A stretch of 63,207 nucleotides of DNA, from NCBI GenBank assembly GCA_016184305.1, contig JACPCX010000177.1, positions 1 through 63,207 on the forward strand, read 5' to 3'. The position numbers were made by a program, and so were the translations under genes. Below the pieces are notes generated by a model that did not search any database, was not told where the DNA came from, and saw only the letters and a list, made by a program, of their open reading frames with translations. Below are positions 24,327 to 47,275 of the stretch, piece by piece. This DNA is from Candidatus Rokuibacteriota bacterium. Lineage in GTDB: Bacteria; Methylomirabilota; Methylomirabilia; Rokubacteriales; CSP1-6. How positions within the stretch are numbered: the first letter of the stretch is position 1; every line of letters starts with the position of its first letter.

Positions 24327-24330
24327 GCCC

Positions 24331-27860: not shown

Positions 27861-28096
27861 CGGACGCGGGTCCGCTCCTCGCCGCCCTGGATGTCGGCAC
27901 GGGATCTCTCCGGGCGCTTGTCGTCGACGGCGACGGCCGGGTCATGGCCTCGGCCGCCCGGCCCGTGGACATCCACCGGGGCGAGGGCGCCAGGGTTCGA
28001 GGGGGCGACTACGACATCCTGGCGGGACGGCGACGGGATCTCTACCTGGCCTTGCGCGATCAGTTCGGCCGGGCCGCCGCCCCGCCGGATTCCTGA
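27857..28096 (+). pseudogene. FGGY carbohydrate kinase remnant (probably internal deletion)
   Basis: AALDVGTGSLRALVVD N-terminus joined to a short C-terminal-like tail; only about 79 aa. Confidence 0.7.
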
Positions 28097-28854
28097 GCGC
28101 CGGCTGGAGACCAGACGAACACGGCCGCGGTCTTCCTGAACGGGGCGATCAATTCCCTTCCGTTATTTACGAGCCGCTCCTTGAGGAATCGGGCGAGGTA
28201 GGCTCGGGGCCCTGGACCCTCGAGCCCCATGTAGGTCATCCAGAAGTCACACGCCTCGTCCAGGTCCATGAACGGCTGATCCGAGCAGTACTCGACGAGG
28301 GTGACCCGGGGCTCCATGCCGAGAGCGCGCAGGCCCGCGAGCGTCTCGTCGGCGTGGCTCCGGTGCTCGTAGGGCCGGCCCAGGAGAGCCGGGTACAACT
28401 CCCTGTAGAAGAACTTGTCCTGGTCCTCCGGGCGGGGCGCGTCCCGGATCAGCAACACCAGCCGGCGCGCCAGCCGCTTCGCGTCGGCCAGGAAGGGCGA
28501 GTCCGCGTTCAGGAGCCCGCCCACGTGGGCACAGACGACGAGGTCATGCGGCTCCACGGAAACCTCGCCCCATGCCGCCTCGATCACCGTCACCCTGCCG
28601 AGCCCGGCCAGGGCGGCGGCCTCCCGGAGCGCTCCAGCCATGGCCGCCGAGGGCTCCACCGCCGTGACCCGGCCCATTCGCCGCGCCAGCGGCAGCGCCA
28701 GCGCCCCGCAGCCGGCTCCCACGTCGAGGGCGCTCTTGCACTCATCGAGCGCTGGCCCGATGACGGCCAGCACCCTGGACGCGAAGTCGCTCCGCGCCAG
28801 GGCGCGCGCGTACCAGGCCGCCGTCCGCTCCGTCCAGAACTCGGAGTGCGGCAT
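28060..28854 (-). CDS. Class I SAM-dependent methyltransferase
   Basis: ALDVGAGCG, VTAVEPS, HDLVVCAH. Confidence 0.85.
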   Translation of the reverse strand: MPHSEFWTERTAAWYARALARSDFASRVLAVIGPALDECKSALDVGAGCGALALPLARRMGRVTAVEPSAAMAGALREAAALAGLGRVTVIEAAWGEVSVEPHDLVVCAHVGGLLNADSPFLADAKRLARRLVLLIRDAPRPEDQDKFFYRELYPALLGRPYEHRSHADETLAGLRALGMEPRVTLVEYCSDQPFMDLDEACDFWMTYMGLEGPGPRAYLARFLKERLVNNGRELIAPFRKTAAVFVWSPAGAQESGGAAARPN

Positions 28855-28892
28855 GCCGCGACCGCCGCGCCTGAGGGCAAGGCTCAACGAGC

Positions 28893-29417
28893 TTAGCCGA
28901 GCCCCGCGATCAGCCGCTCCACCGCCGCCTCCGCCCAGGCGATGGAGGCCGTCTTGCCCTGCTCGGCCTCCACGGCCGCGAACTCGCGGGACAGGGCCCG
29001 GACGGCCTGATCGTCCAGCACCGCATCGGCCAGCGGGAAGAGGATCCCGTTCTCCTTGTCGATGTGTTGCCTCAGGAGCTCCACGTACTGCCTGGCCTTG
29101 GCGGCCCGATGGGAGGGCTCGCCCGCGGCCATGGCGGCGACCAGGGCGCGGCCCTGCGCGTGCTCCTCGAGCATCACGGCGATGGGCCCGCCTTCGTGCG
29201 GGACCCCGTGCTTGACCATGGCCGGGAACAGCAGCTGCTCCTCCTTGGCGTGGTGATTGCGGTCGGCGAAGGCGCGCAGCCACTCGACCAGCTCCTCCCA
29301 CCAGCCGGCCGGCAGCCCCCCGCTCCCCTTGAGCCGGTCGGCGCCGCGCTCCAGAGTATCCAGCGCGCGCAGGATCACGCGGTGCTCCTCGATCAGGACC
29401 TGCGTCGGTGACTTCAT
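28893..29417 (-). CDS. Hemerythrin-like (HHE) domain protein
   Basis: EEH, NHHAKEE, EEH, HIDKEN..LFP. Confidence 0.9.
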   Translation of the reverse strand: MKSPTQVLIEEHRVILRALDTLERGADRLKGSGGLPAGWWEELVEWLRAFADRNHHAKEEQLLFPAMVKHGVPHEGGPIAVMLEEHAQGRALVAAMAAGEPSHRAAKARQYVELLRQHIDKENGILFPLADAVLDDQAVRALSREFAAVEAEQGKTASIAWAEAAVERLIAGLG

Positions 29418-29434
29418 GCGTTGCTCCCCTCCCG

Positions 29435-30286
29435 TCATATCTTGAACAGCTCCCGCGCGTTGTCGCGGATCAGCTTCTGCCGGGCTTCCGGCCTGAGGCC
29501 GAGTCCGTCCACCTGGTCGAGGCTCTCCTTCCACGACAACCCGTTGGTGCCCCACACCGCCCGGTCCATGCCCATGCGGCTGTTGATGAAGTTGAGGATC
29601 TCGGGCTTCAGGTACTTCGGCATCCAGGCGTCCACGCCGAACCACACATTGTCCCACTTGTAGCAGACGCTGATCAGCTCCTCCACCCAGGGCCAGCCCG
29701 TGTGCGCGCCGAGGATGCGCAGCGTCGGGAAGTCGCAGGCGATCTGGTCGAGATACATCGGCCGCGCGTGCTCGCTCGGCATGGATTCGAGCACGTGCCC
29801 CACCTGCATGGAAACCGGCACGTCCAGCTCGACGCACTTGGAGTAGAGCGGGTACATCTTCCGGTCGTGCAGCGGGATGTCGAAGCCGTAGATGTGGACG
29901 TAGACGCCCTTGAAGTTGTGCTTCCTCACGGCCAGCTCGATCTCGGCCAGGCTCTCCTTGATGCGGAAGGGGTTGTAGCCCGCCAGCCCCACGAAGCGGT
30001 CGGGGTACTTCTCCGTGTACTGCGTCACCTCCTCGAGCGTGGTGTCCATGTACATCCACTTGTTCCAGTACGACCACATCTTGGTCTGGGTGATGAAGAC
30101 CTTCTCCACCCTCGCCTCGTCCATCTTCGCGAGCATCGTCGGGATGGACTCGAACTGGGGCAGGCTGCCGATGGCGCGCTCCATGCGGCAGATGAGCTCC
30201 CCCTTCTTCGCGTCCGTCCACTTGGCGATGAACTCCGGCGTCGCCACGTAGTACATGATGTCGATGGCCTGCGGTCTGTCGCTCAT
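29435..30286 (-). CDS. Amidohydrolase_2 family protein, atypical metal ligands
   Basis: YPDRFVGLA, FKGV, ELDVPV, GAHTGWPW, WGTN. IDIMY in place of IDxHxH. Confidence 0.85.
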   Translation of the reverse strand: MSDRPQAIDIMYYVATPEFIAKWTDAKKGELICRMERAIGSLPQFESIPTMLAKMDEARVEKVFITQTKMWSYWNKWMYMDTTLEEVTQYTEKYPDRFVGLAGYNPFRIKESLAEIELAVRKHNFKGVYVHIYGFDIPLHDRKMYPLYSKCVELDVPVSMQVGHVLESMPSEHARPMYLDQIACDFPTLRILGAHTGWPWVEELISVCYKWDNVWFGVDAWMPKYLKPEILNFINSRMGMDRAVWGTNGLSWKESLDQVDGLGLRPEARQKLIRDNARELFKI

Positions 30287-30353
30287 CACAGTCTCCTTTT
30301 CTCGGTTCGGCGTGATTCCATCAGGAGCGCGGCCCGCGCTCGCGTGTGACGCC

Positions 30354-30533: not shown

Positions 30534-30557
30534 GTCCAGCCCCCCTTTCGCACAGCC

Positions 30558-31331
30558 TCACACCATGGTCAGACCGCCGCTCACGCTGAGCGTCTGGCCG
30601 GTGATGAAGCCCGCGGCAGGGGAGGCCAGGAAGGCCACGGCGCCCGCGATGTCCTCGGGCTGGCCCACACGGCCCAGCGGGATGGCGCGGGTGACCGCCG
30701 CGATGACCCTGGCCGTCTTCTCCGATTGCTGCCGGATCCCCTCGAGCAGCGGCGTTTCCGTGAGCCCGGGGCACACCACGTTCACGGTGATCTGGTGGCG
30801 CGCCATCTCCCGGGCCAGCGTCTTGGAGAAGGCGATGATGGCCCCCTTGGTGCCGGCGTACACGCTCTCCCCCGTGGAGCCCACGCGCCCGGCGTCGGAG
30901 GCGATGCTGATGACGCGGCCCGACCCGCGCTTGACCATGTGCGGGAGCGCGGCCTTGCAGACGTACAGCACGCTCTTGAAGTTGATGGCGATGATCTTGT
31001 CCCAGGTCTCCTCCGCGGTGTCGAGGAACATCTCCATCTTGTCCCAGCCGGCGTTGTTCACCACGATGTCGAGCTGGCCGAACTGCGCCACCACCTGCGC
31101 GACGGCGCCCTCCACCTCCGGGCGCTTCGTGAGGTCCACGCCGACCGCCAGCCCCTTCGTCCCCCACGCCTCGACCTCCCGGCGCACGCCCTCGGCGCTC
31201 TCCGCCAGGATGTCGAGCGCCGCCACCTGGGCCCCCTCCTGGGCCAGCGCGAGCGCGATGGCCCGGCCGATGCCCCTGCCCGCGCCCGTCACGAGCGCCG
31301 TCTTCCCCCTGAGCGTCGTGCTGCCGTTCAT
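30558..31331 (-). CDS. badH: SDR, 2-hydroxycyclohexanecarboxyl-CoA dehydrogenase-like
   Basis: [35 protein letters not shown]. Confidence 0.7.
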
Positions 31332-31347
31332 GCGCGTCTCTCCTCTC

Positions 31348-32124
31348 TCACCTGTTCTTCCACACGGGTTTCCGCTTCTCGACGAAGGCCCGCAGCCCTT
31401 CCTCCGCGTCTTCCGTCCTCATGAGCTCGCCGTGGTACAGCTCATCGAGCGTCGAGAGCCCCTGCTCGAAGTCCACGCCGAGGGCCTCCTTCACCGCGCG
31501 CTTCGTGTAGCGCAGCACCGCCGCGCTCTGGGAGGTGACGCGCGCCAGCTCCTCGCCGACGGCGGCCGCCAGGGCCTCCGGCGCCACCACGCGGTCGACG
31601 AGGCCGATCCGCAGCGCTTCGCCGGCCGTGATGATCTCACCCGAGAGCAGAAGCCGGAGGGTGCGGCTGAGCCCCACGCGCTTCGGGTAGTGCACCGCCG
31701 CGATGGGCGGGAAGACGCCCACCTTGATCTCGGGCTGGCCGAAGGTGGCATTGTCCGTGGCGACCACCACGTCGCAGAAGGTCGCCAGCTCAGCCCCCCC
31801 GCCCAGCGCCGCGCCCTGCACCGCCGCCACCGTGAGGCAGTCCACGGCGTGGAGCCGCCGGAACACCCCGTGGAACGCGTCGATCATGAGCCTGGCGCGC
31901 TCCCCGATGTGATCCTCGACGCTGACCCCTGCCGAGAAGGCCTTGCCTTCCGCGGCGAAGACGAGCGCCTTGACACCGGACCGCTCGCCGGCCGCCTCGA
32001 TGCTCTGCGCCAGCTCCTCGATCATGTCGATGGTGAGGATGTTCAGCGGGGGGCGGGCGAGCGTGATCCGGACGACCTCGCCCTCGTCCGCGTATCGGAT
32101 GAACCGGCCGTCGCTCATCGGCAT
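31348..32124 (-). CDS. dch: Enoyl-CoA hydratase, cyclohexa-1,5-dienecarbonyl-CoA hydratase-like
   Basis: [37 protein letters not shown], in a BCR context. Confidence 0.7.
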
Positions 32125-32136
32125 GTCCTCCCTGCG

Positions 32137-33432: not shown

Positions 33433-34316
33433 ACCCGTGACTCCTCCCTGACAGGCTCGCGCCCGTGGGCGCGGCGTCCGACGCGTTCCTGGAGCGCCTC
33501 CCAGCGCAGATCCACGTCGGCCTGGATCGCGGCGACATCCGCGTCCGACAGATGCGCGAAGCGCGCCTGCGGCCGCAGGTACTCGGCGACGGGGAGCCCG
33601 GCGGGCTCATGCGTGATCCGGTAGCGCGTCCCGTCCTCGATCTCGTAGAGCGGCACGGCGCGCGACTCCACGCCGAGACGCAAGACCCGCAGAGACGCGT
33701 CGTCGGCGATCCCCCAGCCGGGCACACAGGGGCAGGTGATGAGCAGGAACCGCGTGCCCCTCATCTCGCTCGCACGCTGGACCTTGGCCACGAGGTCGTC
33801 CGGATGCGCCGGGGAGGCCGTCGCCGCATAGGGGATGCGGTGGGCGGCGATGATCTCCATGATCTCCTTCTTGCGCGTGCGCTTGCCGCCGGGCGTGGAG
33901 GCCGTGCGCGCCCCCCACGGCGTGGCGGAGGACTTCTGGTTGCCGGTGTTCTGATAGGCCTCGTTGTCGAAGCAGACGTAGATGAAGTCCTCGTTGCGCT
34001 CGGCGGCCCCGGAGAGAGCCTGCAGCCCGATGTCGTAGGTTCCGCCGTCGCCCGCCAGGCAGACCACCGTCGCCCGCTCGCCGCGTGCGCGATAGGCACG
34101 GGCCAGGCCCGAGGCGGCCGCGGCCGTGGTCTCGAAGGCCGTGTGGAACACCGGCACGGTCACCGAGGAGAGCGGCATGGGCCCCATCATGATCGCGACG
34201 CACGAGGGGGCGACGACGACCACGGCGTCAGGGGGCACCGACCGGAGGACGAAGCGGACGGCGAGCGCCACCGCGCACCCCGGACAGGAGGCATGGCCGG
34301 ACAGGAAGCGGTCCAT
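33429..34316 (-). CDS. padI: 2-oxoacid:acceptor oxidoreductase beta (TPP) subunit, phenylglyoxylate dehydrogenase PadI-like
   Basis: GHASCPGC, GDGGTYDIG, DNEAYQNTG. Confidence 0.8.
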   Translation of the reverse strand: MDRFLSGHASCPGCAVALAVRFVLRSVPPDAVVVVAPSCVAIMMGPMPLSSVTVPVFHTAFETTAAAASGLARAYRARGERATVVCLAGDGGTYDIGLQALSGAAERNEDFIYVCFDNEAYQNTGNQKSSATPWGARTASTPGGKRTRKKEIMEIIAAHRIPYAATASPAHPDDLVAKVQRASEMRGTRFLLITCPCVPGWGIADDASLRVLRLGVESRAVPLYEIEDGTRYRITHEPAGLPVAEYLRPQARFAHLSDADVAAIQADVDLRWEALQERVGRRAHGREPVREESRV

Positions 34317-35500
34317 CAGAGCCCCTCCGCCTGTATCGGCTCCGGGTTCATCCCCTCGCGCCCGAGCGCATCACGCGCGATCTGCATCATCCGCTCGGGC
34401 GAGACGTTCACGCCCCCGAGTCCGGCGATGTAGGAGAGCACGGGCGTGGCCCCCTGCCCGAAAGCCGAGAGCGCCGCGCGCACCTCCTGGCAGAAGATGC
34501 CCCCGCTCCCGATGGAGCAGTTGCGGTCCACGACCGCGACCCTGCCGGCCCCCGCCAGCGCCGTGGCGATCTCGGCGGCCGGGAAAGGGCGGAAGAGGCG
34601 CAGCCTGAGGAGCCCAGCGGGAACTCCTGCCTCGCGCAGCCGGTCCACGGCTTCGCGCGCCGTGCCGGCCATGCCGCCCGCCGCCACCAGGACCACCCGG
34701 GCATCCTCGGTGCGGTAGCTCTCGGTGGCCCCGTAACCGCGGCCGGTCAGTTCGCCGTAGTGCCGTCCGGCCTCCGCCACGGCGCCGAGCGCCTGTCCCA
34801 TGGCCTCCTGCATGGCGAGCCGGTTGGCACGCCATTGCGCCGGCGTCGTGGTGTTCCCCACGCTCAGCGGGCGGGCGGGATCGAGGCGCCGCGCGGGCTC
34901 GAAGGGCGGAAGGAAGCGGGCCACCACCTCCTCGCCCGGCACCTCCACCGGCTCCAGCGTGTGCGAGATGTACATGGCCTCGATGACCACCATGGCGGGC
35001 AGCAGCACCGACTCGCCGACCCGGTAGGCCTGCAAGACCGTGTCCAGCGCCTCCTGGCCCGACTCGCAATAGAACTGCATCCAGCCCGTGTCGCGCTGCG
35101 AGAGGCTGTCGGTCTGATCCGCCCAGAAGCCCCAGGGCAACGCGAGGGTCCGGTTGACGTTCACCATGACCACCGGCGTCCGCGCGCCGGCCGCGAAGTG
35201 GAGCATCTCGTGCATGAGGGCGATGCCCTGGGAAGAGGTCGCCGTGAAGACGCGCGCCCCCGCCAGCGAGGCCGCGATGCAGGCAGCCATGGCGGAGTGC
35301 TCGCTCTCGACGGTGATCATCTCGCCCGTGAGCTCTCCCGTCTGGGCGAACTCGAGGAGCTTCTCGAGCACCGGCGTCTGGGGCGTGATGGGGTAAACCG
35401 GGATGACCTGAGGCTTCGCGCGGAGCGCGCCGTAAGCCACGGCGTGGTTGCCCGTGAGCAGCATCCGCCGCTGTCCCGCAACCGTCTCGACGCCCGTCAT
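34316..35500 (-). CDS. padG: 2-oxoacid:acceptor oxidoreductase alpha subunit (PadG-like)
   Basis: YPITPQT, VESEHSAM, TATSSQG, RDTGW. Confidence 0.8.
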   Translation of the reverse strand: MTGVETVAGQRRMLLTGNHAVAYGALRAKPQVIPVYPITPQTPVLEKLLEFAQTGELTGEMITVESEHSAMAACIAASLAGARVFTATSSQGIALMHEMLHFAAGARTPVVMVNVNRTLALPWGFWADQTDSLSQRDTGWMQFYCESGQEALDTVLQAYRVGESVLLPAMVVIEAMYISHTLEPVEVPGEEVVARFLPPFEPARRLDPARPLSVGNTTTPAQWRANRLAMQEAMGQALGAVAEAGRHYGELTGRGYGATESYRTEDARVVLVAAGGMAGTAREAVDRLREAGVPAGLLRLRLFRPFPAAEIATALAGAGRVAVVDRNCSIGSGGIFCQEVRAALSAFGQGATPVLSYIAGLGGVNVSPERMMQIARDALGREGMNPEPIQAEGL

Positions 35501-37179
35501 CGCTCGCTCACCATCTGCAGCGCCCCGCGCGGGCACTCGTGCACGCAGAGGCCGCACCCCTTGCAGTGGTCGCTGGAGATCCGGTAGCCGCCGTCGACTC
35601 TCCGGCTCACCGCCATGTCGGGGCAGTAGAGGAGGCAGTTGTCACAGTCCACGCAGTGGCCGCAGGCGAAGCAGCGCGCCGTCTCGGCGCGGGCCGCGGC
35701 GGCATCGAGTCCCTCCACCACCTCGGCGAAGGAGCCGATCCGCCCGCCAGCCGGCCGCTCGGGCCGCTCGGCGCGCTCCCCCCGCGGGAAATAGTCGAGA
35801 TTGACCTCCGAGAAGGCGACGATATGTCCCGGCATCGCCACGGCCCCCGGATGAGGCGCAGGCTGCGCCTCTGCCGCGCCCGAGAGGAGCTCGTGGATCT
35901 GACGCGCGGCTCGTGTCCCCGCCCCAATGGCATGCGTCACGGTCCGCTGGCTGGAGGCCGCATCGCCCCCGGCGAACACCCGCTGCGCCGGCGTGCTCCC
36001 GTCTGCCGCGGCCTCGACGAGCCCCCGCCGGCCGCGGAGCGCCGCGGGAAGCCCCGAGAGGTCGGTCCCCTGCCCGATGGCGAGCAGCACGCTGTCCGCG
36101 GGGATCACCTCGGGGGGCCCCGGCAGAAAGACGGGACGGATCGCGCCGTCCCGGCCGCGCTCGAGCCTGGCCGGCGCGACGGCCACGCCGGTGACCCGGC
36201 CTCCCAGTTCCACGAGCCGCGCCACGCCGTGCCCATTCCTGATCTCGATGCCCTCGCCGAGGGCCTGGCTCACCTCCTCGGCGAGCGCCGGCATCTCCTC
36301 CCGCGCCTCGAGGGCGACCACGGTCACCGAGGGGACTCCCAGGCGTCGGGCCGAGCGGACCACATCCATGGCAGTGCTGCCGCCGCCCACCACCACGAGG
36401 CGCCGCCCCAGGGCTCTGCGCGTCCCGGAGGCGAGATCGCGGAGGAAGGCGAGCCCGCTGCCGACGCCCTGCGCCTGCTCGCCGCCGAGCCCGAGGCCCA
36501 GCGGCAAAGAGGCGCCCGTGGCGAGGAACACCGCATCGTGAGCCGCCACCGTCTCCCACGAGAGATTGGCGCCGAGGCGCTGGCCCGTGAGGACCTCCAC
36601 GCCGGGGCCGAGGCTCAGCTCGATCTCCCGCGCGAGCACCGCCCGCGGCAGCCGGTACTCGGGGATGCCGTAGCGCAGGAGGCCGCCGAGCTCCGCCTCG
36701 GCCTCGTAGAGGCGCAACCGGTAGCCCCGGCGCGAAAGGTGGTAGGCGCAGGCCAGTCCGGCGGGGCCGCCGCCCACCACCGCCACCCGCTCCGGCCTCG
36801 GGAGCTCCGGCCGGGCGAGGTTGCCATGCCGAAGCCCCCAGTCACCCACGAAGCGCTCGAGGGCGTTGATGGCCACAGCGCCGTCGTGCTGGCCGCGATT
36901 GCAGGCCGACTCGCACGGATGCGCGCAGAGGCGCCCCATGATGGCCGGGAACGGGTTCTCCTCGCGGATCAGGGCCCAGGCAGCCGCCAGGTCCCCGCGG
37001 CGCGCCAGCTCGATCCAGCGCGCGACAGGCTCGCCGGCGGGGCAGGCCGCGCGGCAGGGCGCCGTCGCCTCCACGTACACCGGCCGCCTGGTGCGCCAGC
37101 CGCCGGTCTTGACCTCGAGCGTGGTCCGGCCGGGCTCCGTCCAGCACAGGGGACGCGCGGCGCCGAGCTCCCGGGCCAT
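35497..37179 (-). CDS. GltD/DsrL-like FAD-NAD(P)H oxidoreductase with C-terminal 2x[4Fe-4S] (delta-like) domain
   Basis: CRAACP..CAHPCESAC, GGGPAG, YGIP, GGGSTAMD, CVDCDNCLLYCP, CKGCGLCVHECP. Confidence 0.88.
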   Translation of the reverse strand: MARELGAARPLCWTEPGRTTLEVKTGGWRTRRPVYVEATAPCRAACPAGEPVARWIELARRGDLAAAWALIREENPFPAIMGRLCAHPCESACNRGQHDGAVAINALERFVGDWGLRHGNLARPELPRPERVAVVGGGPAGLACAYHLSRRGYRLRLYEAEAELGGLLRYGIPEYRLPRAVLAREIELSLGPGVEVLTGQRLGANLSWETVAAHDAVFLATGASLPLGLGLGGEQAQGVGSGLAFLRDLASGTRRALGRRLVVVGGGSTAMDVVRSARRLGVPSVTVVALEAREEMPALAEEVSQALGEGIEIRNGHGVARLVELGGRVTGVAVAPARLERGRDGAIRPVFLPGPPEVIPADSVLLAIGQGTDLSGLPAALRGRRGLVEAAADGSTPAQRVFAGGDAASSQRTVTHAIGAGTRAARQIHELLSGAAEAQPAPHPGAVAMPGHIVAFSEVNLDYFPRGERAERPERPAGGRIGSFAEVVEGLDAAAARAETARCFACGHCVDCDNCLLYCPDMAVSRRVDGGYRISSDHCKGCGLCVHECPRGALQMVSER

Positions 37180-37183
37180 CGGG

Positions 37184-37723
37184 CTAACCCGGACCCGCCG
37201 CCGCGTGGTAGCCGGCGGAGCAGGCTTCGAGGTTCTCCCGGTTGCGGGCCGGGCTGCCCTCCTCCACCGCGGCCTGCATGTCCTCGAGGGAGACGAGCCC
37301 CGTCGCGCGCGCGAAGACCCCGAGCAGAACGGTGGAGACGATGGGGCCGAGCCCGGCCCGCCCGGCAATCCCCGTCGCGTCCGCCGCGACGAGCCTGACC
37401 CCCGGCGGCAGCGCGCCTTCGAGAGGGGCTCCGCTGTTGACAACGACGGTCCCTCCCGGCTCGATGTCGGCCACGATGGCACCGCCATCCAGCATGGTGG
37501 GGTCGAGGACGATGGCGTAGCGGGGGCGCTCGATGTCGCAGCGCAGCCGGATGGGCTTGTCGTCGGCCCGGACGAAGGCGGTGACGGGCGCGCCCCGCCG
37601 CTCTCCGCCATAGGCGGCGAAGGCCTGGACATGCCGGCCCGACCGGAAGAAGGCCCCGGCCAGGATCTGGCATCCGACCTGGGCCCCCTGGCCGCCCCGT
37701 CCGTGAATCCTGACCTCGAGCAT
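37184..37723 (-). CDS. padE: 2-oxoacid:acceptor oxidoreductase gamma subunit (PadE-like)
   Basis: EVRIHGRGGQG, YGGERRGAPV. Confidence 0.82.
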   Translation of the reverse strand: MLEVRIHGRGGQGAQVGCQILAGAFFRSGRHVQAFAAYGGERRGAPVTAFVRADDKPIRLRCDIERPRYAIVLDPTMLDGGAIVADIEPGGTVVVNSGAPLEGALPPGVRLVAADATGIAGRAGLGPIVSTVLLGVFARATGLVSLEDMQAAVEEGSPARNRENLEACSAGYHAAAGPG

Positions 37724-37772
37724 GCTTGCCTGCACTCCCGGCGCCCCCCGAGGGCGGCGCGAATGAGCTAGG

Positions 37773-38225: not shown

Positions 38226-38236
38226 GGCACTCTCCT

Positions 38237-39037: not shown

Positions 39038-39039
39038 GG

Positions 39040-40724: not shown

Positions 40725-40727
40725 GGC

Positions 40728-41363
40728 TCACTCCACCACGTAGAAGACGGACGGCTCGGTGCCGCACTCGGGCAGGAGCGGCTGCGCCTTCGTCTTGGCC
40801 CGCAGCCTGGCCACGGGGCTCTTGGGATCGTCCAGGTCGCCGAACGTGATCACGTTGGCGATGCAGGCGACGGCGCACATGGGCGTGGCCTCCTGGTCGA
40901 TCCCCGGCGTGAGCCCCTGCGCCCGCCCGCCATCCACCCGCTCCTTGCAGAAGTTGCACTTGGTCATGACGCCGACCCGCTCGGGCTGGGCCGTCGCCCG
41001 CTCCGGCGGCGTGAGGGCGTCGAAGTAGCCACGCGCCTCATGGATGAGGTGCCGCGCGTGGTAGGGGCAGGCCACGGCGCAGTAGCCGCAGCCGACGCAG
41101 GCCCCGTACTCCACCCAGACAATGCCGTCCTCGCGCTGGCGCGAGGCGCCCGTGGGGCACACGGGCACGCATGGCGGGTCGGCGCAGTGCATGCACTGCA
41201 TGGGAAGGAAGAGCCGCCTCACGTCCGGATACTCGCCGACCTCGCAGTCGGCGACGAAGCGCCACACCTGGCCGGCCGGCAGGCCGTGCTCCTGCATGCA
41301 GGCGATCGTGCAGGTCTGGCAACCCACGCAGCGTCTGACGTCGATCACCATGCCCCAGCGCAT
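40728..41363 (-). CDS. padC: 4x[4Fe-4S] electron-transfer subunit (PadC-like)
   Basis: [44 protein letters not shown]. Confidence 0.85.
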
Positions 41364-44098
41364 CACGCCCTCCTTACCGTTACGGGCACCAGGTCGGCCC
41401 CGCTGCCCGTGGCGTCGGTGAGCGCGAGGTCCATGCTTTCCACCTGATTGAGGTTCGGCATGCCGAGGTCGCGGGCGAAGGGCGTGGCCCAGTGTCCGAA
41501 CTGCTGCAGGATCACGACGACATCTGGCCGGACGCCTTCCCGCAGGATCGCGAGCCCCTGGGTCTTGCCGGTGGGCGACTCGACATCCACCAGGTCGCCG
41601 TTCGCGATGCCAAGCCGCGTCGCCGCTCCCCGGTTCAGCATGACGCCGAAGTGGCCCTTCACGTGCCGCGCCACGTCGGCCAGGATCGGGAGCGAGACGT
41701 TGGCGCCCCAGGAGTACTGCATGCTCCGGCTCGTCAGGAGCCAGAAGGGGAAGTCCGCGGCGCTCTTCCCACGCAACACCGCCGTCTGCTGCCAGATGCC
41801 GGGGAAGTCCTTCCACTTGGGCAGCGGCTGGTACTCGTCGAGCTGCACGTCCCACCACTTGATGCCTCGCTCGTGCAGCCGCGCCGACAGCTCCTCGCCG
41901 ATGCGCTTGATGCGCTCCTGGTAGGGCATCTCGTAGCGCAGCCCCTGGGCCAACATGGTCGTGTGCAGGAAGTACTGCCGCATGGAGAACGGCACGAAGA
42001 AGGCGCCGTTGCGCTTGAACCAATCCAGGTCCAGCTCCACCCGGCCGTCCGTGAGGGCGCCTGTCGCCGCGCGGCATACCCGGTCCCAGATCTCGGTGGC
42101 GGCGGGCCTGTCACCGGGTTTGAACGAGTGGTCGTACCCCTTGTCGCGCAGCGGGATCGTCGTCCCCGCCCCGCGGTTCACCGCCTCGAGATAGCCGTCC
42201 AGGATGCCGACACGGTCAGCCAGCTCGGTGGCCACGTCCGTCAGATCGCGCGTGTCGAATGGCGTGGCGGCCACCGGCTGGCGGAGGGCCCAGCCCAAGT
42301 GGTGCCAGTACTGCTCCTGGTACTTGGTGCCGCCGATGCGGTAGAGCTGCAGCGACTCGATGTCGCTGGCGTCCGGGAGGAGCAGGTCCGCGTACCAGTT
42401 GGTCTCGTCCTGCGTATAGGCGAAGGCCGCCACGAACGGGAAGCGCTCCAGCTCGCGCTCGATGCGGCCGGTTTCCCAGCTCGACACCGCGGGATTGGTC
42501 CGGTAGATGATCCACACCTCCGGCAGCGTGGGCGCCGGCCAGCGCTCGGGTGCGGCGTCCTTGTCGAGAAAGAGCCACGGCAGGTGCGCGGGGCCCAGTG
42601 CCGGCGACCAGGGCGAGTTGTTCGCCAGCGGGACCAGCGTCCGGTAGGCGTTCCGGATATGCGGCGAGCCCTTCCAGCCCTCGCGGGTCGTGGCGTTGGT
42701 CGACTGCTCCATGAAGCCGTCGGGCCCCGGCCGAACGGAGTCGTGGCGATTCTGGGCGGGGCGGTTGAGCCGCACCGCCGTGCCCAGGATCCCGCCGGGC
42801 ACCTCGAGGGCGCCCACGAGAGCCGCCAGCAGGGTGCGAGCCCAGCAGGCCTCGTAGGCGCCCCAGCCGTTCGAGACGGTCTTGCCGAGCAGGATGGCCA
42901 CGGGGCGGTGCGGGTACGTGACGCCCTCGATCTCGATGGTGGCGCCCACGTGGGCGTGGCGCAGGTAGGCCGCCGCCAGGCGGCGGATCGTCTCCGCGGG
43001 CACATCCGCGATCTCCGCGGCCCACTCGGGCGTGTACGGCGTGACGTGCTCGATCAGCAGCCCGAAAGCCGGCCGCACCCGCTGGCTGACGCTGATGACG
43101 GCCTCGTCCGCCCCCACCTCGACGCCGGCCGCCAGGTACTCGCCCTCCATCGCCGGGCGCCTGCACCGCGGGTCGTCGAAGGGCACGGTGCGCTCCCGGT
43201 CCAGGTCCCACACGAGCGGCTTCCTCGTGGCCGGGTCCCTGAGGAAGTACCCTCCCGGCCCCACGAGGTAGGGCGAGCTCGTCATGTTCGTGAGGAACGG
43301 CACGTCGCAGACGCTCCGCCAGTCGTGTTCTACCAGGATCGCGTGCAGGAGGGCGAAGAGCACGGCGGCATCGGTTTTCGGCCGGATGGGCACCCACTCG
43401 ACAGCGCCCGCCCCCGTGATGCTCAGGTGCGGCTCCAGCTGCACCCACTGCAGCCCCCGTACCCGCGCCTCGGAGTGCCGGTAGACGCCGGTGACGCCGC
43501 CCGAGGCATCCCCGTTGTTGCCGAAGGACAGCACGAAGTCGCAGCGGGGCACGTCCGCGGCCACGATGAAGGCGCGGTGCCAGAACTCGCCGTACAGGTG
43601 CTCGGAGTGATAGCACTTGACGCCCTGGCCGCTGCCGATCCCCTGGTCCACCGGTCCCCAGGCGGAGAGGAATGCGGCCATCGTGCCGAGGAAGGCCGGC
43701 GCGATGCCACCCGCCCCGAAGGTCACCGCCAGCCGCGGGTAGCCCGCCTCATCCACGAGCCCCTTGGCGCGCAGCGCCGAGAGCCGCCCCCCGAGCATGT
43801 CGAACGCCTCGTCCCAGGAGATAGGCTCCCACCCCGGGTCCTCGCTCCGCCCCTTGCGGGGATTGGTGCGGCGCATGGGCGTGCGGATCCGGCCTGGGTT
43901 GTAGAGCTTCTGGATGAGCCCGTAGGCGCGGACACAGACCTTCCCGCACGCCGGGTGCTGCTCGGCGAAGTCGCTGTTGGGCTCGACGCCGATGGCGACG
44001 CCGTCCTTGACGATCACCTTCAGGAGATCAGGGCCCGCCACGCACTGGTAGCAGTAGACCGGGACCTTCTCGATCGTCGCTCCGTTGGTCGCTGCCAT
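41363..44098 (-). CDS. padB: Molybdopterin oxidoreductase, phenylacetyl-CoA:acceptor oxidoreductase large subunit
   Basis: YCYQCVAGPDLLKV, CVRAYGLIQKLYNP, KCYHSEHLYGEFWHR. No Tat signal. pad gene context. Confidence 0.85.
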   Translation of the reverse strand: MAATNGATIEKVPVYCYQCVAGPDLLKVIVKDGVAIGVEPNSDFAEQHPACGKVCVRAYGLIQKLYNPGRIRTPMRRTNPRKGRSEDPGWEPISWDEAFDMLGGRLSALRAKGLVDEAGYPRLAVTFGAGGIAPAFLGTMAAFLSAWGPVDQGIGSGQGVKCYHSEHLYGEFWHRAFIVAADVPRCDFVLSFGNNGDASGGVTGVYRHSEARVRGLQWVQLEPHLSITGAGAVEWVPIRPKTDAAVLFALLHAILVEHDWRSVCDVPFLTNMTSSPYLVGPGGYFLRDPATRKPLVWDLDRERTVPFDDPRCRRPAMEGEYLAAGVEVGADEAVISVSQRVRPAFGLLIEHVTPYTPEWAAEIADVPAETIRRLAAAYLRHAHVGATIEIEGVTYPHRPVAILLGKTVSNGWGAYEACWARTLLAALVGALEVPGGILGTAVRLNRPAQNRHDSVRPGPDGFMEQSTNATTREGWKGSPHIRNAYRTLVPLANNSPWSPALGPAHLPWLFLDKDAAPERWPAPTLPEVWIIYRTNPAVSSWETGRIERELERFPFVAAFAYTQDETNWYADLLLPDASDIESLQLYRIGGTKYQEQYWHHLGWALRQPVAATPFDTRDLTDVATELADRVGILDGYLEAVNRGAGTTIPLRDKGYDHSFKPGDRPAATEIWDRVCRAATGALTDGRVELDLDWFKRNGAFFVPFSMRQYFLHTTMLAQGLRYEMPYQERIKRIGEELSARLHERGIKWWDVQLDEYQPLPKWKDFPGIWQQTAVLRGKSAADFPFWLLTSRSMQYSWGANVSLPILADVARHVKGHFGVMLNRGAATRLGIANGDLVDVESPTGKTQGLAILREGVRPDVVVILQQFGHWATPFARDLGMPNLNQVESMDLALTDATGSGADLVPVTVRRA

Positions 44099-44130
44099 GG
44101 GTGGCTTCTCCTTACCGCATCAATACCGCA

Positions 44131-45399: not shown

Positions 45400-45429
45400 C
45401 GTTTGGCCTCCCTGGGTCGCCGCGTCAGG

Positions 45430-45497
45430 CCGGGCTCGCTCCGCTCGCCAACCTCTTCCATATTTCGCTCGCCTCGCCTTCGGCTGCGGCTCGCCAA
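45430..45497. repeat. Intergenic GCTCGC-rich REP-like element
   Basis: Repeated GCTCGC/CCTCGC units. Similar GGCGAGC(CGAGCC) motifs occur at about 20114-20160 and 47582-47642. Confidence 0.4.
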
Positions 45498-46652
45498 TCA
45501 ATCGAACATCATGGATTCGACGAAGGTCTCGATCTCGTTGCGGGTGCGCTCGAAGGTCCACATCTTCTCCTCGAACTCCACGAGCATGTGGGGGATCCCC
45601 GCAAGCTCCAGCCCCTGCCTCATCAGCACGTAGTCGAAGAGCGCCGGCTCGCAGAACTTGGCCGGCATGAAGATCACGGCCTGCGCATTCGCCCGGCGTA
45701 CCTTCTCGATGAGCCCGACGGAGCGATGCTCCCGGCCCTCGTGCCGCGTCGAGGAGGGCACCGCCTGGTTCACGTAGGCCGCCCCCAGCCGATCGTAGGG
45801 ATCGCCCTCGCCCGCCACGTCGCCGGTTATCCAGCGCCAGCCGAGCAGCAGGTCGTCCTCGACCACGTAGCAGCCCGCGTCCTCCAGGACCTCGAGAAGC
45901 CCGATGGGGGGCTGCTCGCAGAAGGCGCCCTCGATCACGACCCGCAGCCGGTCCCGGGGCCGGGCACTGCGCCGCGGCAGCTCCGCCAGCAGCGTGTCGA
46001 GCGAGGGTATAGCCTCCTCGGGCGGCACGAGGGTCGCGGCGCGGAGCACCACGTACAGATCCACGGTGGACAGCTTCTGAGGCTCCGCGATCCGGAAGGC
46101 GTAGAACGCCCGCAGCCGCGCCCTGAGGGCATTGTAGACGTCGATGCTCTTGCCGAGGGCCATCGGCGTGACGCCGAGCCCGAGGGCCTTCTCGGCCGCT
46201 GCGGCCAGCCGGCGCAGCTCGCTGGCGCAGTAGACCGCCACGGACGCGGAGGTGGAGTTTTGCGGCAGGTGCAGGTACTCCACGAACACGTCCTGGAAGT
46301 TCCGCTGGTAGATGCTGCTGAGGTTGCGGGCCACGTCGCAGATGTTCGAGTAGACGAAGCCGTCCACCCCCTTGACCAGCCCCTGAAAGCCCAGCTCGAG
46401 CGTGGACTTCGCGATGGAGCAGACGAAGGACTGGAAGCGCGCGTCCGCGTGGGTCAGCTCCACCGAGGTGCCGCCGCCGAGGAGTGACAGCGGGAGCATC
46501 CCCGCCGCGTGGATGACCTCGGCCGGCGCCCACACGGGGTAGACCGCGACGACCTTCCCGCCCGGGTGCTGGCTTTTCCACTGCTCGGCCACGGCGCCCA
46601 GCGGCTGGGTCACGAGATCACGGCAACGCTCGATGATCGCCTCGGCGGTCAT
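45498..46652 (-). CDS. Benzoyl-CoA reductase / 2-hydroxyacyl-CoA dehydratase family subunit (BcrC/BzdN-like)
   Basis: PAEVIHAAG, QSFVCSI, ICDVARNL, GAFCEQPP, KFCEPAL. Confidence 0.88.
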   Translation of the reverse strand: MTAEAIIERCRDLVTQPLGAVAEQWKSQHPGGKVVAVYPVWAPAEVIHAAGMLPLSLLGGGTSVELTHADARFQSFVCSIAKSTLELGFQGLVKGVDGFVYSNICDVARNLSSIYQRNFQDVFVEYLHLPQNSTSASVAVYCASELRRLAAAAEKALGLGVTPMALGKSIDVYNALRARLRAFYAFRIAEPQKLSTVDLYVVLRAATLVPPEEAIPSLDTLLAELPRRSARPRDRLRVVIEGAFCEQPPIGLLEVLEDAGCYVVEDDLLLGWRWITGDVAGEGDPYDRLGAAYVNQAVPSSTRHEGREHRSVGLIEKVRRANAQAVIFMPAKFCEPALFDYVLMRQGLELAGIPHMLVEFEEKMWTFERTRNEIETFVESMMFD

Positions 46653-47275
46653 GCTGGCCTCCTCAGGCCGCTCTCGCTCTCGGGAGCCCCCTCCCGGTCC
46701 GCGGAACGCTCAAGAAATCCGTACAGGAACAGTCCCCCGACCTGGGCCGCGAGGGTCCGCGCGTCTTCGGCGGAGCGCAGGAAAGGCCGGGTGGCGATGC
46801 CGTTGAGCATGCCGAGCAGCAGGTTCGTGGCAGACAGGAGCTCGTCGCCGGAGCGGCCATACGGATCCAGCTCGCGCAGGACACCCAGCCCCCGGAGCAG
46901 ATACGACTGCCGCTTCGTGGCGATCTCCGAGCGCTGCGGCTCGGGCAGCAGATCGTAGTCCCGGTTGATGATCTTGAGCGCCTGCGCGTGGTGGAAGCCG
47001 AAGCCGAGGTGGGTCTGGAGCAGTGCGAGAAGCCGCCCCTCCGGGCTGCGCGCCTCGACCAGCGCAGCGTCGAGACTCGCGATCAGGCGGTCGAGAGAGC
47101 GGTCGAGCACCATGAACAGGAGCTCGTCCTTGCCGCCGACATAGTGATAGAGCCCGGCCAGCGACAGCCCGGCGGCGCGCGCGATCTCCCTGATCGACGC
47201 CTGGTGGAATCCGCGGCGCGCGATCACATCGGCCGCCCCTTTCAGGATCCCCTCGTACCGCTCCCCGATCGCCAT
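46649..47275 (-). CDS. TetR/AcrR family regulator heading the aromatic gene run
   Basis: RGFHQASIREIARAAGLSLAGLYHY..KDELL. GGAGG RBS before the ATG at 47275. Confidence 0.92.
   Translation of the reverse strand: MAIGERYEGILKGAADVIARRGFHQASIREIARAAGLSLAGLYHYVGGKDELLFMVLDRSLDRLIASLDAALVEARSPEGRLLALLQTHLGFGFHHAQALKIINRDYDLLPEPQRSEIATKRQSYLLRGLGVLRELDPYGRSGDELLSATNLLLGMLNGIATRPFLRSAEDARTLAAQVGGLFLYGFLERSADREGAPESESGLRRPA

Follow-up and report, generated by a model that had tools for sequence, protein, structure and literature searches.

The window analysed here, a stretch of 63,207 nucleotides from an uncultured soil and groundwater bacterium of the Rokubacteria/Methylomirabilota, carries genes resembling those for anaerobic phenylacetate oxidation (pad), interleaved with genes resembling those for a class I benzoyl-CoA reductase (bcr). 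This raises the question of whether the two gene sets form one catabolic system, and on which substrate it may act.

Organization of the gene cluster

Third-position GC content and Pfam/NCBIfam scans delineate a run of 20 genes (28060-47308), all located on the negative strand (Table 1), with intergenic gaps of -61 to +98 nt and overlaps at six of the 19 junctions, confirming the order of mostly abutting or overlapping genes proposed in an earlier sequence-only reading. Three terminator-like sites were found in the run where 4.2 were expected, which is no excess over chance. The run would form one catabolic cluster, probably a single operon read as one transcript. RNA-library contigs from four studies lie on 29-30 of 30 bins, although these contigs are short, are mostly 90-95% alike and hence from relatives, and may include DNA carry-over.

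The stop of the tetR gene overlaps the start of the bcrC-like gene by 4 nt, and a tetR gene keeps this position in the Rokubacteria-type loci. No NCBIfam equivalog model was passed by the TetR protein, which matches the solved MbdR with only 24 bits; a TetR-family aryl-CoA-sensing repressor is also described for the mbd cluster in PMC4424350. The 59-aa membrane ORF, absent from the list of the sequence-only reading, shares 81% identity with an ORF at the equivalent site in locus L008. Weak relatives of the GNAT protein (29-36% identity, tblastn) adjoin padB in many proteobacterial loci, and in SAR324 (L042) a GNAT gene separates bcrD from padB. Several Rokubacteria-type loci likewise have hemerythrin genes, as do the clusters of Anaerolineae (L043) and Rhodospirillaceae (L057), while copies of the methyltransferase (60-63% identity) occur in L004 and L025.

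Table 1. Features of the pad-bcr gene run, from the regulator to the last gene (positions in the window)
Feature	Coordinates	Strand	Supporting match
TetR-family regulator	46649..47308	-	Pfam TetR_N 48 bits; TetR_C_24
Aryl-CoA reductase subunit, BcrC/MbdN-like, 384 aa	45498..46652	-	HGD-D 223 bits
Aryl-CoA reductase subunit, BcrB/MbdO-like, 422 aa	44131..45399	-	HGD-D 210 bits
PadB-type molybdopterin subunit, 911 aa	41363..44098	-	Pfam Molybdopterin, Molydop_binding
PadC-type four-cluster ferredoxin subunit, 212 aa, 18 Cys	40728..41366	-	Fer4_11 and related
PadD-type membrane anchor, 292 aa	39846..40724	-	DmsC 33 bits; NrfD 31 bits
Reductase ATPase subunit 1, MbdQ/BcrA-like, 269 aa	39040..39849	-	BcrAD_BadFG 221 bits
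Reductase ATPase subunit 2, BcrD-like, 266 aa	38237..39037	-	BcrAD_BadFG 193 bits
GNAT acetyltransferase-fold protein, 150 aa	37773..38225	-	Acetyltransf_1 51 bits
2-oxoacid:acceptor oxidoreductase gamma subunit	37184..37735	-	POR 119 bits
GltD-like NAD(P)/FAD subunit fused to PorD-type 2x[4Fe-4S] domain, 560 aa	35497..37179	-	Pyr_redox_2, Fer4_20, Fer4
2-oxoacid oxidoreductase alpha subunit	34316..35557	-	POR_N 217 bits; PFOR_II 98 bits
2-oxoacid oxidoreductase beta (ThDP) subunit, 295 aa	33429..34316	-	TPP_enzyme_C
PaaK-type arylacetate-CoA ligase, 431 aa	32137..33432	-	TIGR02155 best match, full length
Crotonase-family hydratase, weakly Dch-like	31348..32124	-	ECH_1 174 bits
SDR dehydrogenase, BadH-like	30558..31331	-	TIGR03206 (BadH) best match by ~75 bits
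Small hydrophobic membrane ORF, 59 aa	30354..30533	-	GC3 0.88
Amidohydro_2 TIM-barrel protein, 284 aa	29435..30289	-	PF04909 109 bits
Hemerythrin-domain protein, 174 aa	28893..29417	-	PF01814 86 bits
SAM-methyltransferase-domain protein	28060..28887	-	Methyltransf_25/11

PadBCD and the CoA ligase

The translated PadB product shares 57.2% amino acid identity over 906 aa with the PadB of a canonical cluster (L061), which speaks against a place outside the Pad clade; PadB proteins whose genes neighbour canonical PadEGI (L061) or bona fide BcrCBAD (L057, L042) are 55-58% identical to it. The L061 oxidoreductase passes the equivalog cut-offs (score/cut-off: PadE 327/300; PadG 760/700; PadI 836/700). 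Residues Cys16, 19, 55 and 162 of PadB are invariant in 8/8 aligned homologs, and no twin-arginine signal was found in the window protein. The PadC-type subunit is DsrO/TtrB/DmsB-like, scoring below all of these cut-offs, and its gene follows padB in most of the 72 loci, while the PadD-type anchor contains several hydrophobic segments in Kyte-Doolittle analysis. Overall, the Mo enzyme is a good ortholog of PadBCD. The PaaK-type ligase scores 563.6 against TIGR02155, below its cut-off of 646.3, and the genome yielded no PaaA above cut-off.

Canonical pad clusters of denitrifying Betaproteobacteria and Sedimenticola comprise padJ, padBCD and padEFGHI, as described in PMC4453571. They have in common with the window a PaaK/PadJ-type ligase, a three-subunit Mo/FeS/membrane-anchor enzyme and a 2-oxoacid oxidoreductase that includes an additional GltD-like subunit, and the order padBCD, oxidoreductase, ligase is retained. 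The window differs in that its oxidoreductase subunits belong to another lineage (only 36-40% identical to those of L061), the GltD-like subunit carries the delta ferredoxin as a fusion, the reductase genes are interleaved, a GNAT gene is inserted and the regulator is of the TetR type, whereas that of L061 is BzdR-like.

2-Oxoacid oxidoreductase

The genes earlier read as padE, padG and padI show a Pad-like architecture, but their products score closer to Por/Vor proteins than to PadEGI. Gamma subunit scores are 154 for PorC (cut-off: 270) and 143 for PadE (cut-off: 300), while the alpha subunit, whose true start could be more internal given the -61 nt overlap, scores 419 for PorA_Arch (cut-off: 550) as against 269.5 for PadG (cut-off: 700). 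The beta subunit scores 326 for VorB/PorB (cut-off: 405) as against 221 for PadI (cut-off: 700), matches only positions 150-435 of the PadI profile and lacks the PadI N-terminal ferredoxin domain. The GltD-like fusion passes NF009410 (549; cut-off: 516), with a 68-bit PorD match at its C-terminus. We interpret the complex as an oxidoreductase of Pad-like architecture which is not a PadEGI ortholog.

An oxidoreductase of this type adjoins padBCD and paaK in Burkholderiales (L045/L048), the alpha subunit being 55-57% identical. Orthologs (at least 68% identity) are present in nine of 151 genomes of the phylum, all nine of which carry the pad-bcr module. The oxidoreductase is, however, missing from 25 of the 34 module genomes and from nine of the ten Rokubacteria-type loci whose downstream sequence extends to 9 kb or more, so that the proposed phenylglyoxylate decarboxylation is not encoded in this manner throughout.

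Aryl-CoA reductase

As in BcrCBAD/BadDEFG (TIGR02263, 02260, 02259, 02261), two HGD-D subunits and two different BcrAD_BadFG ATPases are encoded. The BcrCBAD models are the best NCBIfam matches for three of the four subunits, the exception being ATPase 1, for which a generic activase domain model scores higher, and all four remain below the equivalog cut-offs. The BcrC-like subunit scores 300 for BcrC (cut-off: 421), 183 for HadC and 90 for BzdN, and against PDB entries 257 (MbdN), 161 (HadC-type) and 90 bits (BzdN). Corresponding values for the BcrB-like subunit are 321 for BcrB (cut-off: 487), 167 for HadB and 110 for BzdO, and 256 (MbdO), 146 (HadB) and 108 bits (BzdO). ATPase 1 matches MbdQ with 349.5 bits, HadI with 231 and HgdC with 203, while the BcrA model, which spans 432 positions in contrast to its 269 aa, is matched in the C-terminal part only (191; cut-off: 578); ATPase 2 scores 194.5 for BcrD (cut-off: 313).

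Among solved structures, those of MbdONQP (9g87, 9gai and related entries) come closest to the three subunits compared (with MbdO, MbdN and MbdQ), and MbdQ and ATPase 1 are of equal length. The substrate of MbdONQP is 3-methylbenzoyl-CoA, not benzoyl-CoA. An orthologous relationship with Mbd was rejected, as the window protein scores 256 bits with MbdO while other representatives score 288 and 345 bits. In the tree of BcrB-type proteins the window falls in a clade of its own (support: 100/99), outside both the HadB-like (100/100) and bona fide BcrB (100/100) clades, with the deep branches weakly supported (81-87). Models, PDB matches and tree group the HGD-D subunits with aryl-CoA reductases rather than dehydratases. 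The split benzoyl-CoA reductase proposed earlier thus stands as a split aryl-CoA reductase, but not as a BcrCBAD ortholog: within the class I aryl-CoA reductases, the four genes form a clade of their own with good support. Relative to Thauera-type bcrCBAD, they are divided by padBCD into CB and AD pairs.

Lower pathway and respiration

Next to the ligase gene come those for a crotonase and a BadH-like SDR, for which the earlier readings as dch and badH-like fall below cut-off: the crotonase scores 172 for the dienoyl-CoA hydratase model (cut-off: 292.5), barely above generic enoyl-CoA hydratases, and the SDR 319.6 for BadH (cut-off: 431). Both types are shared with the Dch-Had-Oah (Thauera) and BadK-BadH-BadI (Rhodopseudomonas) pathways, the window order corresponding to hydration and oxidation. 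The 88.8%-complete genome yielded no Had, Oah or BadI above cut-off; a MenB/BadI-like crotonase encoded on a different contig gave an ambiguous score (252; cut-off: 468). The Amidohydro_2 protein has no NCBIfam match, and its best PDB match is the uncharacterised BB4693 (76 bits). Its orthologs (82-98% identity) are present in 21/151 genomes of the phylum, 19 of these having BcrB as well as PadB, and its slot is occupied in the related Anaerolineae cluster by a second, Oah/BadI/MenB-like crotonase. This module-specific and highly conserved protein is the candidate for ring opening.

Coupling of aromatic degradation to NO or nitrate, also suggested in the sequence-only reading, finds no support. 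The genome encodes an aa3 oxidase and yielded neither NarG nor NirK above cut-off, and the nearby oxidase-family genes sit on the opposite strand, 13 kb or more from the run, the one compared being closest to ba3-type O2 reductases.

Conservation of pad-bcr linkage

BcrB and PadB occur together in 34 of the 151 sampled genomes of the phylum (about a quarter) and are linked in 32 of these, immediately adjacent in 28 and within 1.1-2.2 kb in four. Each of the 14 Rokubacteria-type loci with sufficient flank has the complete set of four bcr genes, split in 13 and contiguous in one. Bona fide BcrCBAD, with all scanned subunits above cut-off, adjoins padBCD in SAR324 (L042) and Rhodospirillaceae (L057) MAGs, while pad and bcr lie within 13 kb in a Burkholderiales MAG (L045/G002). 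A single run in Anaerolineae (L043) encodes a PaaX-family regulator, PaaK, PadBCD, the reductase, an SDR and two crotonases; directly after padBCD, at the place of the window's oxidoreductase, lie genes for 2-oxoacid dehydrogenase E1 alpha/beta. The linkage, spanning four phyla, is conserved and no one-off; of the interleaving previously considered unusual, only the split order is restricted to Rokubacteria.

Proposed pathway and alternatives

We propose, with a probability of about 0.65, that the run encodes the breakdown of phenylacetate, or of a closely related arylacetate, without oxygen and via ring reduction. The earlier suggestion of a compact pathway from phenylacetate to a dearomatised CoA ester in an unexpected lineage is supported in the form of an arylacetate pathway. 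The CoA thioester would be formed by PaaK, and its alpha-carbon oxidized to phenylglyoxylate by the cytoplasm-facing, membrane-anchored PadBCD, with electrons passing to the quinone pool. Phenylglyoxylate would be decarboxylated to benzoyl-CoA by the four-subunit oxidoreductase with its GltD-like NAD(P) subunit, and the ring reduced by the four-subunit, ATP-driven class I reductase of the Rokubacteria-type clade. The crotonase, the BadH-like SDR and probably the Amidohydro_2 protein may then hydrate, oxidize and open the ring. The pathway-specific equivalogs (BcrC, BcrB, BcrD, BcrA, PaaK, PadG, PadI, PadE, Dch, BadH) all score below their curated cut-offs.

It is conceivable, if rather unlikely, that the substrate of the ligase and PadBCD is a heteroaromatic or substituted arylacetate (for example, 4-hydroxyphenylacetate, a methyl-phenylacetate or indoleacetate) and that of the reductase the matching substituted aryl-CoA, with which the PaaK score (564/646), the reductase placement outside the bona fide BcrB clade, its closest solved relative being a 3-methylbenzoyl-CoA reductase and the non-canonical lower-pathway enzymes would agree. 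Against this stand the PadB identity to proteins beside canonical PadEGI or bona fide BcrCBAD, the lack of a window Mbd ortholog and the regulator of the related Anaerolineae cluster, PaaX being described in PMC4424350 as a sensor of phenylacetyl-CoA.

The oxidoreductase may instead be the electron-donor system of the reductase, drawing on a common 2-oxoacid or on NAD(P)H to regenerate low-potential ferredoxin, a role that we consider improbable as a replacement for phenylglyoxylate oxidation. KorAB-type and NADPH:ferredoxin systems regenerate low-potential ferredoxin for known class I reductases, and the higher scores for pyruvate/2-oxoisovalerate models, the fused ferredoxin domain in a run with no separate ferredoxin gene, and the patchy distribution expected of an exchangeable accessory fit this role. 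However, Burkholderiales padBCD/paaK loci carry the oxidoreductase with no reductase in the fetched flank (L048) or with reductase genes only 13 kb away (L045/G002), the subunit set mirrors PadEFGHI, and Anaerolineae place another 2-oxoacid-decarboxylating enzyme straight after padBCD. The two roles are compatible, and the enzyme could also feed electrons to the reductase. It is very improbable that the products of the HGD-D/ATPase genes are a 2-hydroxyacyl-CoA dehydratase and its activators, or that pad and bcr are unrelated neighbours: relatives are named 2-hydroxyacyl-CoA dehydratase by NCBI and the HadB/HadC model scores are significant (167 and 183 bits), but BcrB/BcrC models and solved MbdO/MbdN score ~100-150 bits higher, the tree excludes the BcrB-like protein from the HadB-like clade, and the window encodes two different ATPases while known dehydratases have one activator gene. 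The interleaving with 4-nt overlaps and the linkage in 32/34 genomes and four phyla further argue against chance adjacency. If the cluster does serve arylacetate degradation through ring reduction, its Rokubacteria-type reductase would represent a branch of ring-reducing enzyme not classified before.

Gene order and transcription signals

As the G+C content of the window is ~70%, third-position GC was used to distinguish genes from shadow ORFs, after which Pfam and NCBIfam scans were applied. These analyses confirmed the gene order proposed in the sequence-only reading, in the form of a single run on the minus strand, and added one small hydrophobic ORF to it (see the table of features). Between neighbouring genes of the run the widest gap is 98 nt and the longest overlap 61 nt, with six of the junctions overlapping. 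Terminator-like sites are no more frequent in the run than expected by chance (three versus 4.2 expected), no Rfam families are found between positions 27500 and 48000, and no sigma-70-like promoter sites were detected (0 versus 1.0 expected) in a scan that is uninformative for this phylum. It is plausible that the whole run constitutes one operon. The TetR regulator encoded at its start bears no specific resemblance to MbdR (24 bits).

With ≥90% likeness as the threshold, contigs of four metatranscriptomic libraries, representing four studies, cover 29 to 30 of the 30 bins into which the run was divided. These contigs are short and most are 90-95% alike, and so derive from relatives. The RNA runs match small shares of the stretch (0.05-0.11 of the words sampled). 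Low-depth bins carry no meaning and DNA carry-over is possible. The contigs are compatible with expression of the run.

Features of the window and of related genomes and loci, with coordinates
Sequence	Coordinates	Strand	Feature	Remarks
Window	5972-6538, 7819-9123, 11323-13236, 13244-14668	+	COX1-family ORFs	Preceded by a Crp/Fnr-type regulator; stretch 5367-14668
Window	6701-7822	+	DUF1858/DUF2249/TusA-domain protein	Among the COX1-family ORFs
Window	23442-24326		SCO1/SenC gene	Adjoins the cytochrome b fusion ORF
Window	24067-26010	+	647-aa ORF fusing cytochrome b, 2x[4Fe-4S] and an FlpD/HdrA2-like C-terminus	Unusual fusion; start uncertain
Window	47308-28060	-	Gene run (coordinates of the whole run), first part	TetR, two HGD-D genes, molybdopterin subunit, four-cluster ferredoxin, DmsC/NrfD-like anchor, two BcrAD_BadFG ATPases
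Window		-	Gene run, continued	GNAT, POR gamma, fusion of GltD-like protein and PorD-type ferredoxin, POR alpha, POR beta, PaaK
Window		-	Gene run, last part	Crotonase, SDR, Amidohydro_2 protein, hemerythrin, methyltransferase
Window	29435-30289	-	Amidohydro_2 protein	
Window	30354-30533	-	Hydrophobic 59-aa ORF	GC3 0.88; counterpart at the same place in locus L008, 81% identical
Window	57181-58404	-	YNCE-type beta-propeller	Below cut-off to lactonase-type NosZ (118/700 bits) and hydrazine synthase beta (95/560 bits)
G000:C51 (window's genome)	30835-31849		Second HGD-D-family locus	
G119:C9	9817-11076		Second BcrB copy	
L024	13370-19976		Genes downstream of the contiguous-type cluster	
L043 (Anaerolineae)	717-22240		Pathway genes	
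L057 (Rhodospirillaceae MAG)	14164-22384		BcrCBAD and flanking genes	

The PadBCD molybdenum enzyme

[quoted passage not shown] The predicted PadB shares 57.2% amino acid identity over 906 aligned residues with PadB of L061, a Rhodocyclaceae MAG locus, which places it with the Pad enzymes, as the sequence-only reading had proposed, on the basis of pairwise comparison. L061 harbors a canonical pad cluster (profile score/curated cut-off in bits: PadE, 327/300; PadG, 760/700; PadI, 836/700), as well as a BzdR-like regulator and PaaY. The window protein shares 55-76% identity with a further seven homologues, which represent four phyla, and 271 of the 911 alignment columns are invariant, including Cys16, Cys19, Cys55 and Cys162. 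No PadB-specific model was found among the NCBIfam matches, and the next-best named Mo families in NCBIfam and the PDB, ArrA (135 bits) and PhsA (132 bits), match only the first ~260 residues. The window enzyme is thus named here as a predicted PadBCD orthologue. By eye, a twin-arginine motif is absent before the first Cys motif in the N-termini of the eight aligned PadB homologues (the surplus N-terminal residues in the L061 row being an artefact of ORF extension), consistent with orientation of the active site towards the cytoplasm, the compartment that contains CoA thioesters.

A separate clade of predicted aryl-CoA reductases

The four predicted reductase subunits score below the cut-offs of the BcrCBAD equivalogs (BcrC, 300/421; BcrB, 321/487; BcrA, 191/578; BcrD, 194/313), which are passed by the positive control loci L057 and L042. 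Nevertheless, the Thauera-type BcrC and BcrB are the best models for the two HGD-D subunits, which fall further below the cut-offs of the 2-hydroxyisocaproyl-CoA dehydratase (HadC, 183/700; HadB, 167/750) and below those of the Bzd-type models (BzdN, 90; BzdO, 110 bits). Their best matches among solved structures in the PDB, together with that of the first ATPase, belong to 3-methylbenzoyl-CoA reductase (MbdO, 256; MbdN, 257; MbdQ, 349 bits), with MbdQ and the first ATPase of the run being of equal length (269 aa). PDB dehydratase chains score lower (HadB, 146; HadC-type, 161; HadI, 231 bits), and BzdO and BzdN score 108 and 90 bits, respectively.

An exhaustive search among 1.84 billion representatives returned 196 proteins at E ≤1e-30. 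The first 50 of the 98 full-length matches were labelled with NCBIfam, with BcrB being the top model for 11 (two above cut-off) and HadB-like models for 29, while ten had no match at 1e-60. A maximum-likelihood tree of 31 rows was constructed from all 11 BcrB-labelled, five of the ten unlabelled and ten of the 29 HadB-like proteins, the window protein and four locus proteins. The window protein forms one clade with those of L024 and the database representative P0124 (support 100/99). This clade lies outside the HadB-like clade (100/100), and is likewise excluded from the bona fide BcrB clade (100/100), which holds the L057 and L042 proteins; deeper branches are supported at only 81-87. Two database representatives in the tree, P0134 and P0135, score 288 and 345 bits to MbdO, and neither of them is thus MbdO itself.

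The position of the BcrB-like protein in the tree thus argues against clustering of the HGD-D subunits with the dehydratases. Known dehydratases have a single activator gene. Membership of the 2-hydroxyacyl-CoA dehydratases (Had/Hgd/Fld/Lcd) is contradicted by the scores, the clade and the two distinct ATPase genes, while the presence of two HGD-D subunits and two different BcrAD_BadFG ATPases, closer to reductases than to dehydratases, agrees with a class I (ATP-dependent) aryl-CoA reductase in the broad sense. The enzyme is a predicted class I aryl-CoA reductase of a clade of its own and should not be filed as BcrCBAD. Alongside the Bcr and Bzd/Mbd types, it may constitute a third branch within the class I aryl-CoA reductases, subject to the placement of MbdO. 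Automated annotation of these genes is unreliable, as shown by the conflicting names that they receive (JGI: benzoyl-CoA reductase subunit C; NCBI: 2-hydroxyacyl-CoA dehydratase). The window's genome has a second HGD-D-family locus, to which the BcrC model aligns as two neighbouring segments (73 and 86 bits), and which may represent a pair of genes, a single gene with a frameshift or a distant paralogue.

Conservation of the pad-bcr linkage

The assembly containing the window is 3.2 Mb in size, comprises 239 contigs and is 88.8% complete. When the Mo subunit was queried against species-representative genomes, at least 604 stretches encoding relatives were obtained, of which 72 loci were kept, and 19 window proteins were mapped onto these; three loci lacking a full PadB match were left out of the counts. 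Among the matches listed, the closest relatives of the Mo subunit derive from Candidatus Rokubacteria / Methylomirabilota MAGs, with the L001 protein sharing 95% identity. Fourteen of the thirty Rokubacteria-type loci (PadB ≥72% identical) have at least 3 kb upstream and at least 3.5 kb downstream of padB, and all fourteen contain the four reductase genes. The split order bcrCB-padBCD-bcrAD is found in 13/14, while L024 shows the order bcrCBAD-hemerythrin-padBCD, which is shared by the truncated locus L027. Where at least 2.6 kb is available upstream, bcrB is located there in 22/23 loci, the exception being L028. Among the 18 loci with PadB 55-62% identical and enough flank, mostly from Proteobacteria, 14 have no reductase gene and two (L042 and L057) have all four. 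The split order is a lineage trait, and the pad-bcr linkage is conserved.

In an evenly drawn sample of 151 genomes of the phylum, in which close relatives do not count as independent and the MAGs are incomplete, a Rokubacteria-type BcrB is present in 41 genomes and PadB (≥60% identity) in 37, while two further PadB matches (34-36% identity) were set aside as other Mo enzymes. Both proteins, together considered the module, occur in 34 genomes, their genes being immediately adjacent in 28, 1.1-2.2 kb apart in four and on different contigs in two; seven genomes have BcrB only and three PadB only. In family f9, four of the seven sampled genomes (G053, G056, G058 and G093) have a BcrB sharing 71-75% identity with that of the window, with PadB not found with the window query, indicating that the reductase clade also exists apart from the pad module. 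In the same-genus genome G119, one BcrB gene adjoins padB and a further copy, sharing 80% identity, is located on a different contig.

Linkage extends to reductases of the established type. Genes passing the BcrCBAD cut-offs adjoin padBCD in L042 (SAR324) and L057 (Rhodospirillaceae; for example 711/421, 852/487, 712/578 and 432/313). In the Burkholderiales genome G002, a bcrCBAD set that shares 64-73% identity with its L057 counterpart (BcrB of G002, 774/487) is located 13 kb from padBCD-paaK. A BcrB-family gene is also present in all five further PadB-bearing genomes tested, scoring above cut-off in two. The sequence-only reading had noted separate pad and bcr clusters in Thauera, Aromatoleum and Rhodopseudomonas. 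Such separation is described for Sedimenticola (PMC4453571), and the linkage in Rokubacteria, SAR324, Rhodospirillaceae and Burkholderiales indicates that it is not universal. The bona fide BcrCBAD genes of L057 are flanked by genes for an Rrf2 regulator, GNAT, hemerythrin and a flavin amine oxidase, which hints at entry of an amine, e.g. of the phenylethylamine type, into the pathway. Downstream of the contiguous-type cluster of L024, a BadH-like SDR (320/431), a second SDR, an acyl-CoA dehydrogenase fragment resembling cyclohexane-1-carbonyl-CoA dehydrogenase, an MmdA-like carboxyltransferase and a methylmalonyl-CoA-mutase-like pair are encoded.

Ligase and oxidoreductase

The ligase of the run has the phenylacetate-CoA ligase PaaK (TIGR02155) as its top model with a full-length match, but does not reach the cut-off (563.6/646.3). 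In the window's genome no PaaA epoxidase subunit scores above cut-off (best: 121/280), suggesting that the ligase probably feeds the Pad route. The Anaerolineae locus L043 contains, in order, genes for a PaaX-family regulator, two crotonases, the four reductase subunits, an SDR, hemerythrin, PadBCD, the alpha and beta subunits of a 2-oxoacid dehydrogenase E1, an ABC transporter and PaaK, and thus shows the pathway in a third arrangement. PaaX and PaaR are described as recognising phenylacetyl-CoA (PMC4424350).

The alpha, beta, gamma and delta functions of a POR-type 2-oxoacid oxidoreductase (OFOR) and a GltD-like flavoprotein are all encoded in four genes, the delta-type ferredoxin domain being fused to the GltD-like protein in a product that passes NF009410 (549/516). 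The equivalog cut-offs of PadEFGHI, the NADH-dependent phenylglyoxylate dehydrogenase, are not reached (PadE, 143/300; PadG, 269.5/700; PadI, 221/700) and Por/Vor models score higher; the subunit logic is shared with PadEFGHI, but identity to the L061 subunits is no higher than 36-40%. The same OFOR type (44-57% identity) is located upstream of padBCD-paaK in the Burkholderiales loci L045 and L048. Orthologues with at least 68% identity occur in nine of the 151 phylum genomes, all of them carriers of the module, and 25 of the 34 module genomes thus lack it. We read this enzyme as a putative alternative phenylglyoxylate-type oxidoreductase that would be dispensable or replaceable, and which may in addition be a source of low-potential electrons for the reductase.

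Lower pathway

The crotonase encoded in the run is marginally Dch-like (172/292.5) and the SDR clearly BadH-like (320/431), both below cut-off. Across the 88.8% complete genome, no Oah (best: 111/464), Had (140/339) or BadI (252/468) homologue scores above cut-off, and the best BadI-like gene is ambiguous, scoring equally as MenB. The Amidohydro_2 protein occupies the slot in which the Anaerolineae have an Oah/BadI/MenB-like crotonase. It has no NCBIfam match, and among the solved structures of the PDB a clear relationship is seen only with a Bordetella protein that is itself uncharacterised (76 bits). Its relatives are numerous and without names, the best 120 being 77-89% identical. Orthologues (82-98% identity) are present in 21 of the 151 phylum genomes. 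BcrB and PadB occur together in 19 of these, while of the other two one has PadB without BcrB and one, 79% complete, lacks both; in nine of the 21 the gene is on the contig of the module. C-C hydrolases exist in the amidohydrolase superfamily, such as LigY. We infer ring opening as a candidate role for this protein. Its Pfam match spans residues 84-283 only and, by eye, its N-terminal strand reads IDIMYY as compared to the HxH metal motif of many members.

Respiration and neighbouring genes

Coupling of the run to NO or nitrate respiration, proposed on the basis of an adjacent NO-respiration locus, is unsupported and should be dropped. The oxidase-family ORFs are located at 5.9-14.7 kb on the opposite strand, with two-component regulators, a radical SAM gene and others in between. 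At E ≤1e-8 none of the four COX1-family ORFs matches any NCBIfam model, oxidase and NOR equivalogs included, beyond a weak CtaD match (73/671), and two match parts of the COX1 profile only. The closest PDB relatives of the largest protein (637 aa) are ba3-type cytochrome c oxidases (146 bits), with no NOR chains among its matches at E ≤1e-5. These genes may nonetheless include an NO-reducing member of the oxidase superfamily. Genome-wide, neither NarG (97/1084) nor NirK (85/296) is found above cut-off, while an aa3-type CtaD is (733/671). Facultative anaerobes are the typical hosts of class I reductases, and hemerythrin genes recur in pad/bcr clusters of three phyla. A cytochrome b fusion ORF with an adjoining SCO1/SenC gene, and a YNCE-type beta-propeller gene, are also found in the window (see the table of features).

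Implications for Rokubacteria

No published treatment of a pad/bcr cluster in Rokubacteria or Methylomirabilota was found in a literature search at the level of listings and abstracts. A preprint describes benzoyl-CoA pathway genes, automatically annotated, in MAGs recovered from soil that represent many phyla, Methylomirabilota among them (10.1101/2025.11.25.690425). We regard the catabolic module encoded by the run as genuine, conserved and widespread, and as a variant of the anaerobic phenylacetate/benzoyl-CoA pathway already known. Its predicted novelties are the unclassified reductase clade, the alternative oxidoreductase and a non-canonical lower pathway. A further-reaching and speculative reading, to which we give a probability of roughly one in five, is that Rokubacteria and some other uncultured soil and groundwater lineages share a distinct arylacetate mineralisation module, in which the new aryl-CoA reductase clade would be transcriptionally fused with PadBCD, ring opening would be performed by the Amidohydro_2 metal-hydrolase fold and not by a crotonase-type Oah/BadI, and the hosts would respire O2 with hemerythrin as O2 sensor or buffer for the oxygen-labile reductase. 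Given hosts that respire O2 and lack nitrate reductase, the pathway would on this reading run under micro-oxic or fluctuating conditions.

Soils and aquifers harbor abundant, uncultured Rokubacteria, of whose carbon sources little is known. The presence of the module in about a quarter of the sampled phylum genomes would make them candidate consumers, independent of oxygenases, of the phenylacetate-type products that arise from phenylalanine and from the turnover of plant material or lignin. For enzymology, the module would add an alternative phenylglyoxylate-type oxidoreductase and a candidate non-crotonase ring-opening hydrolase.
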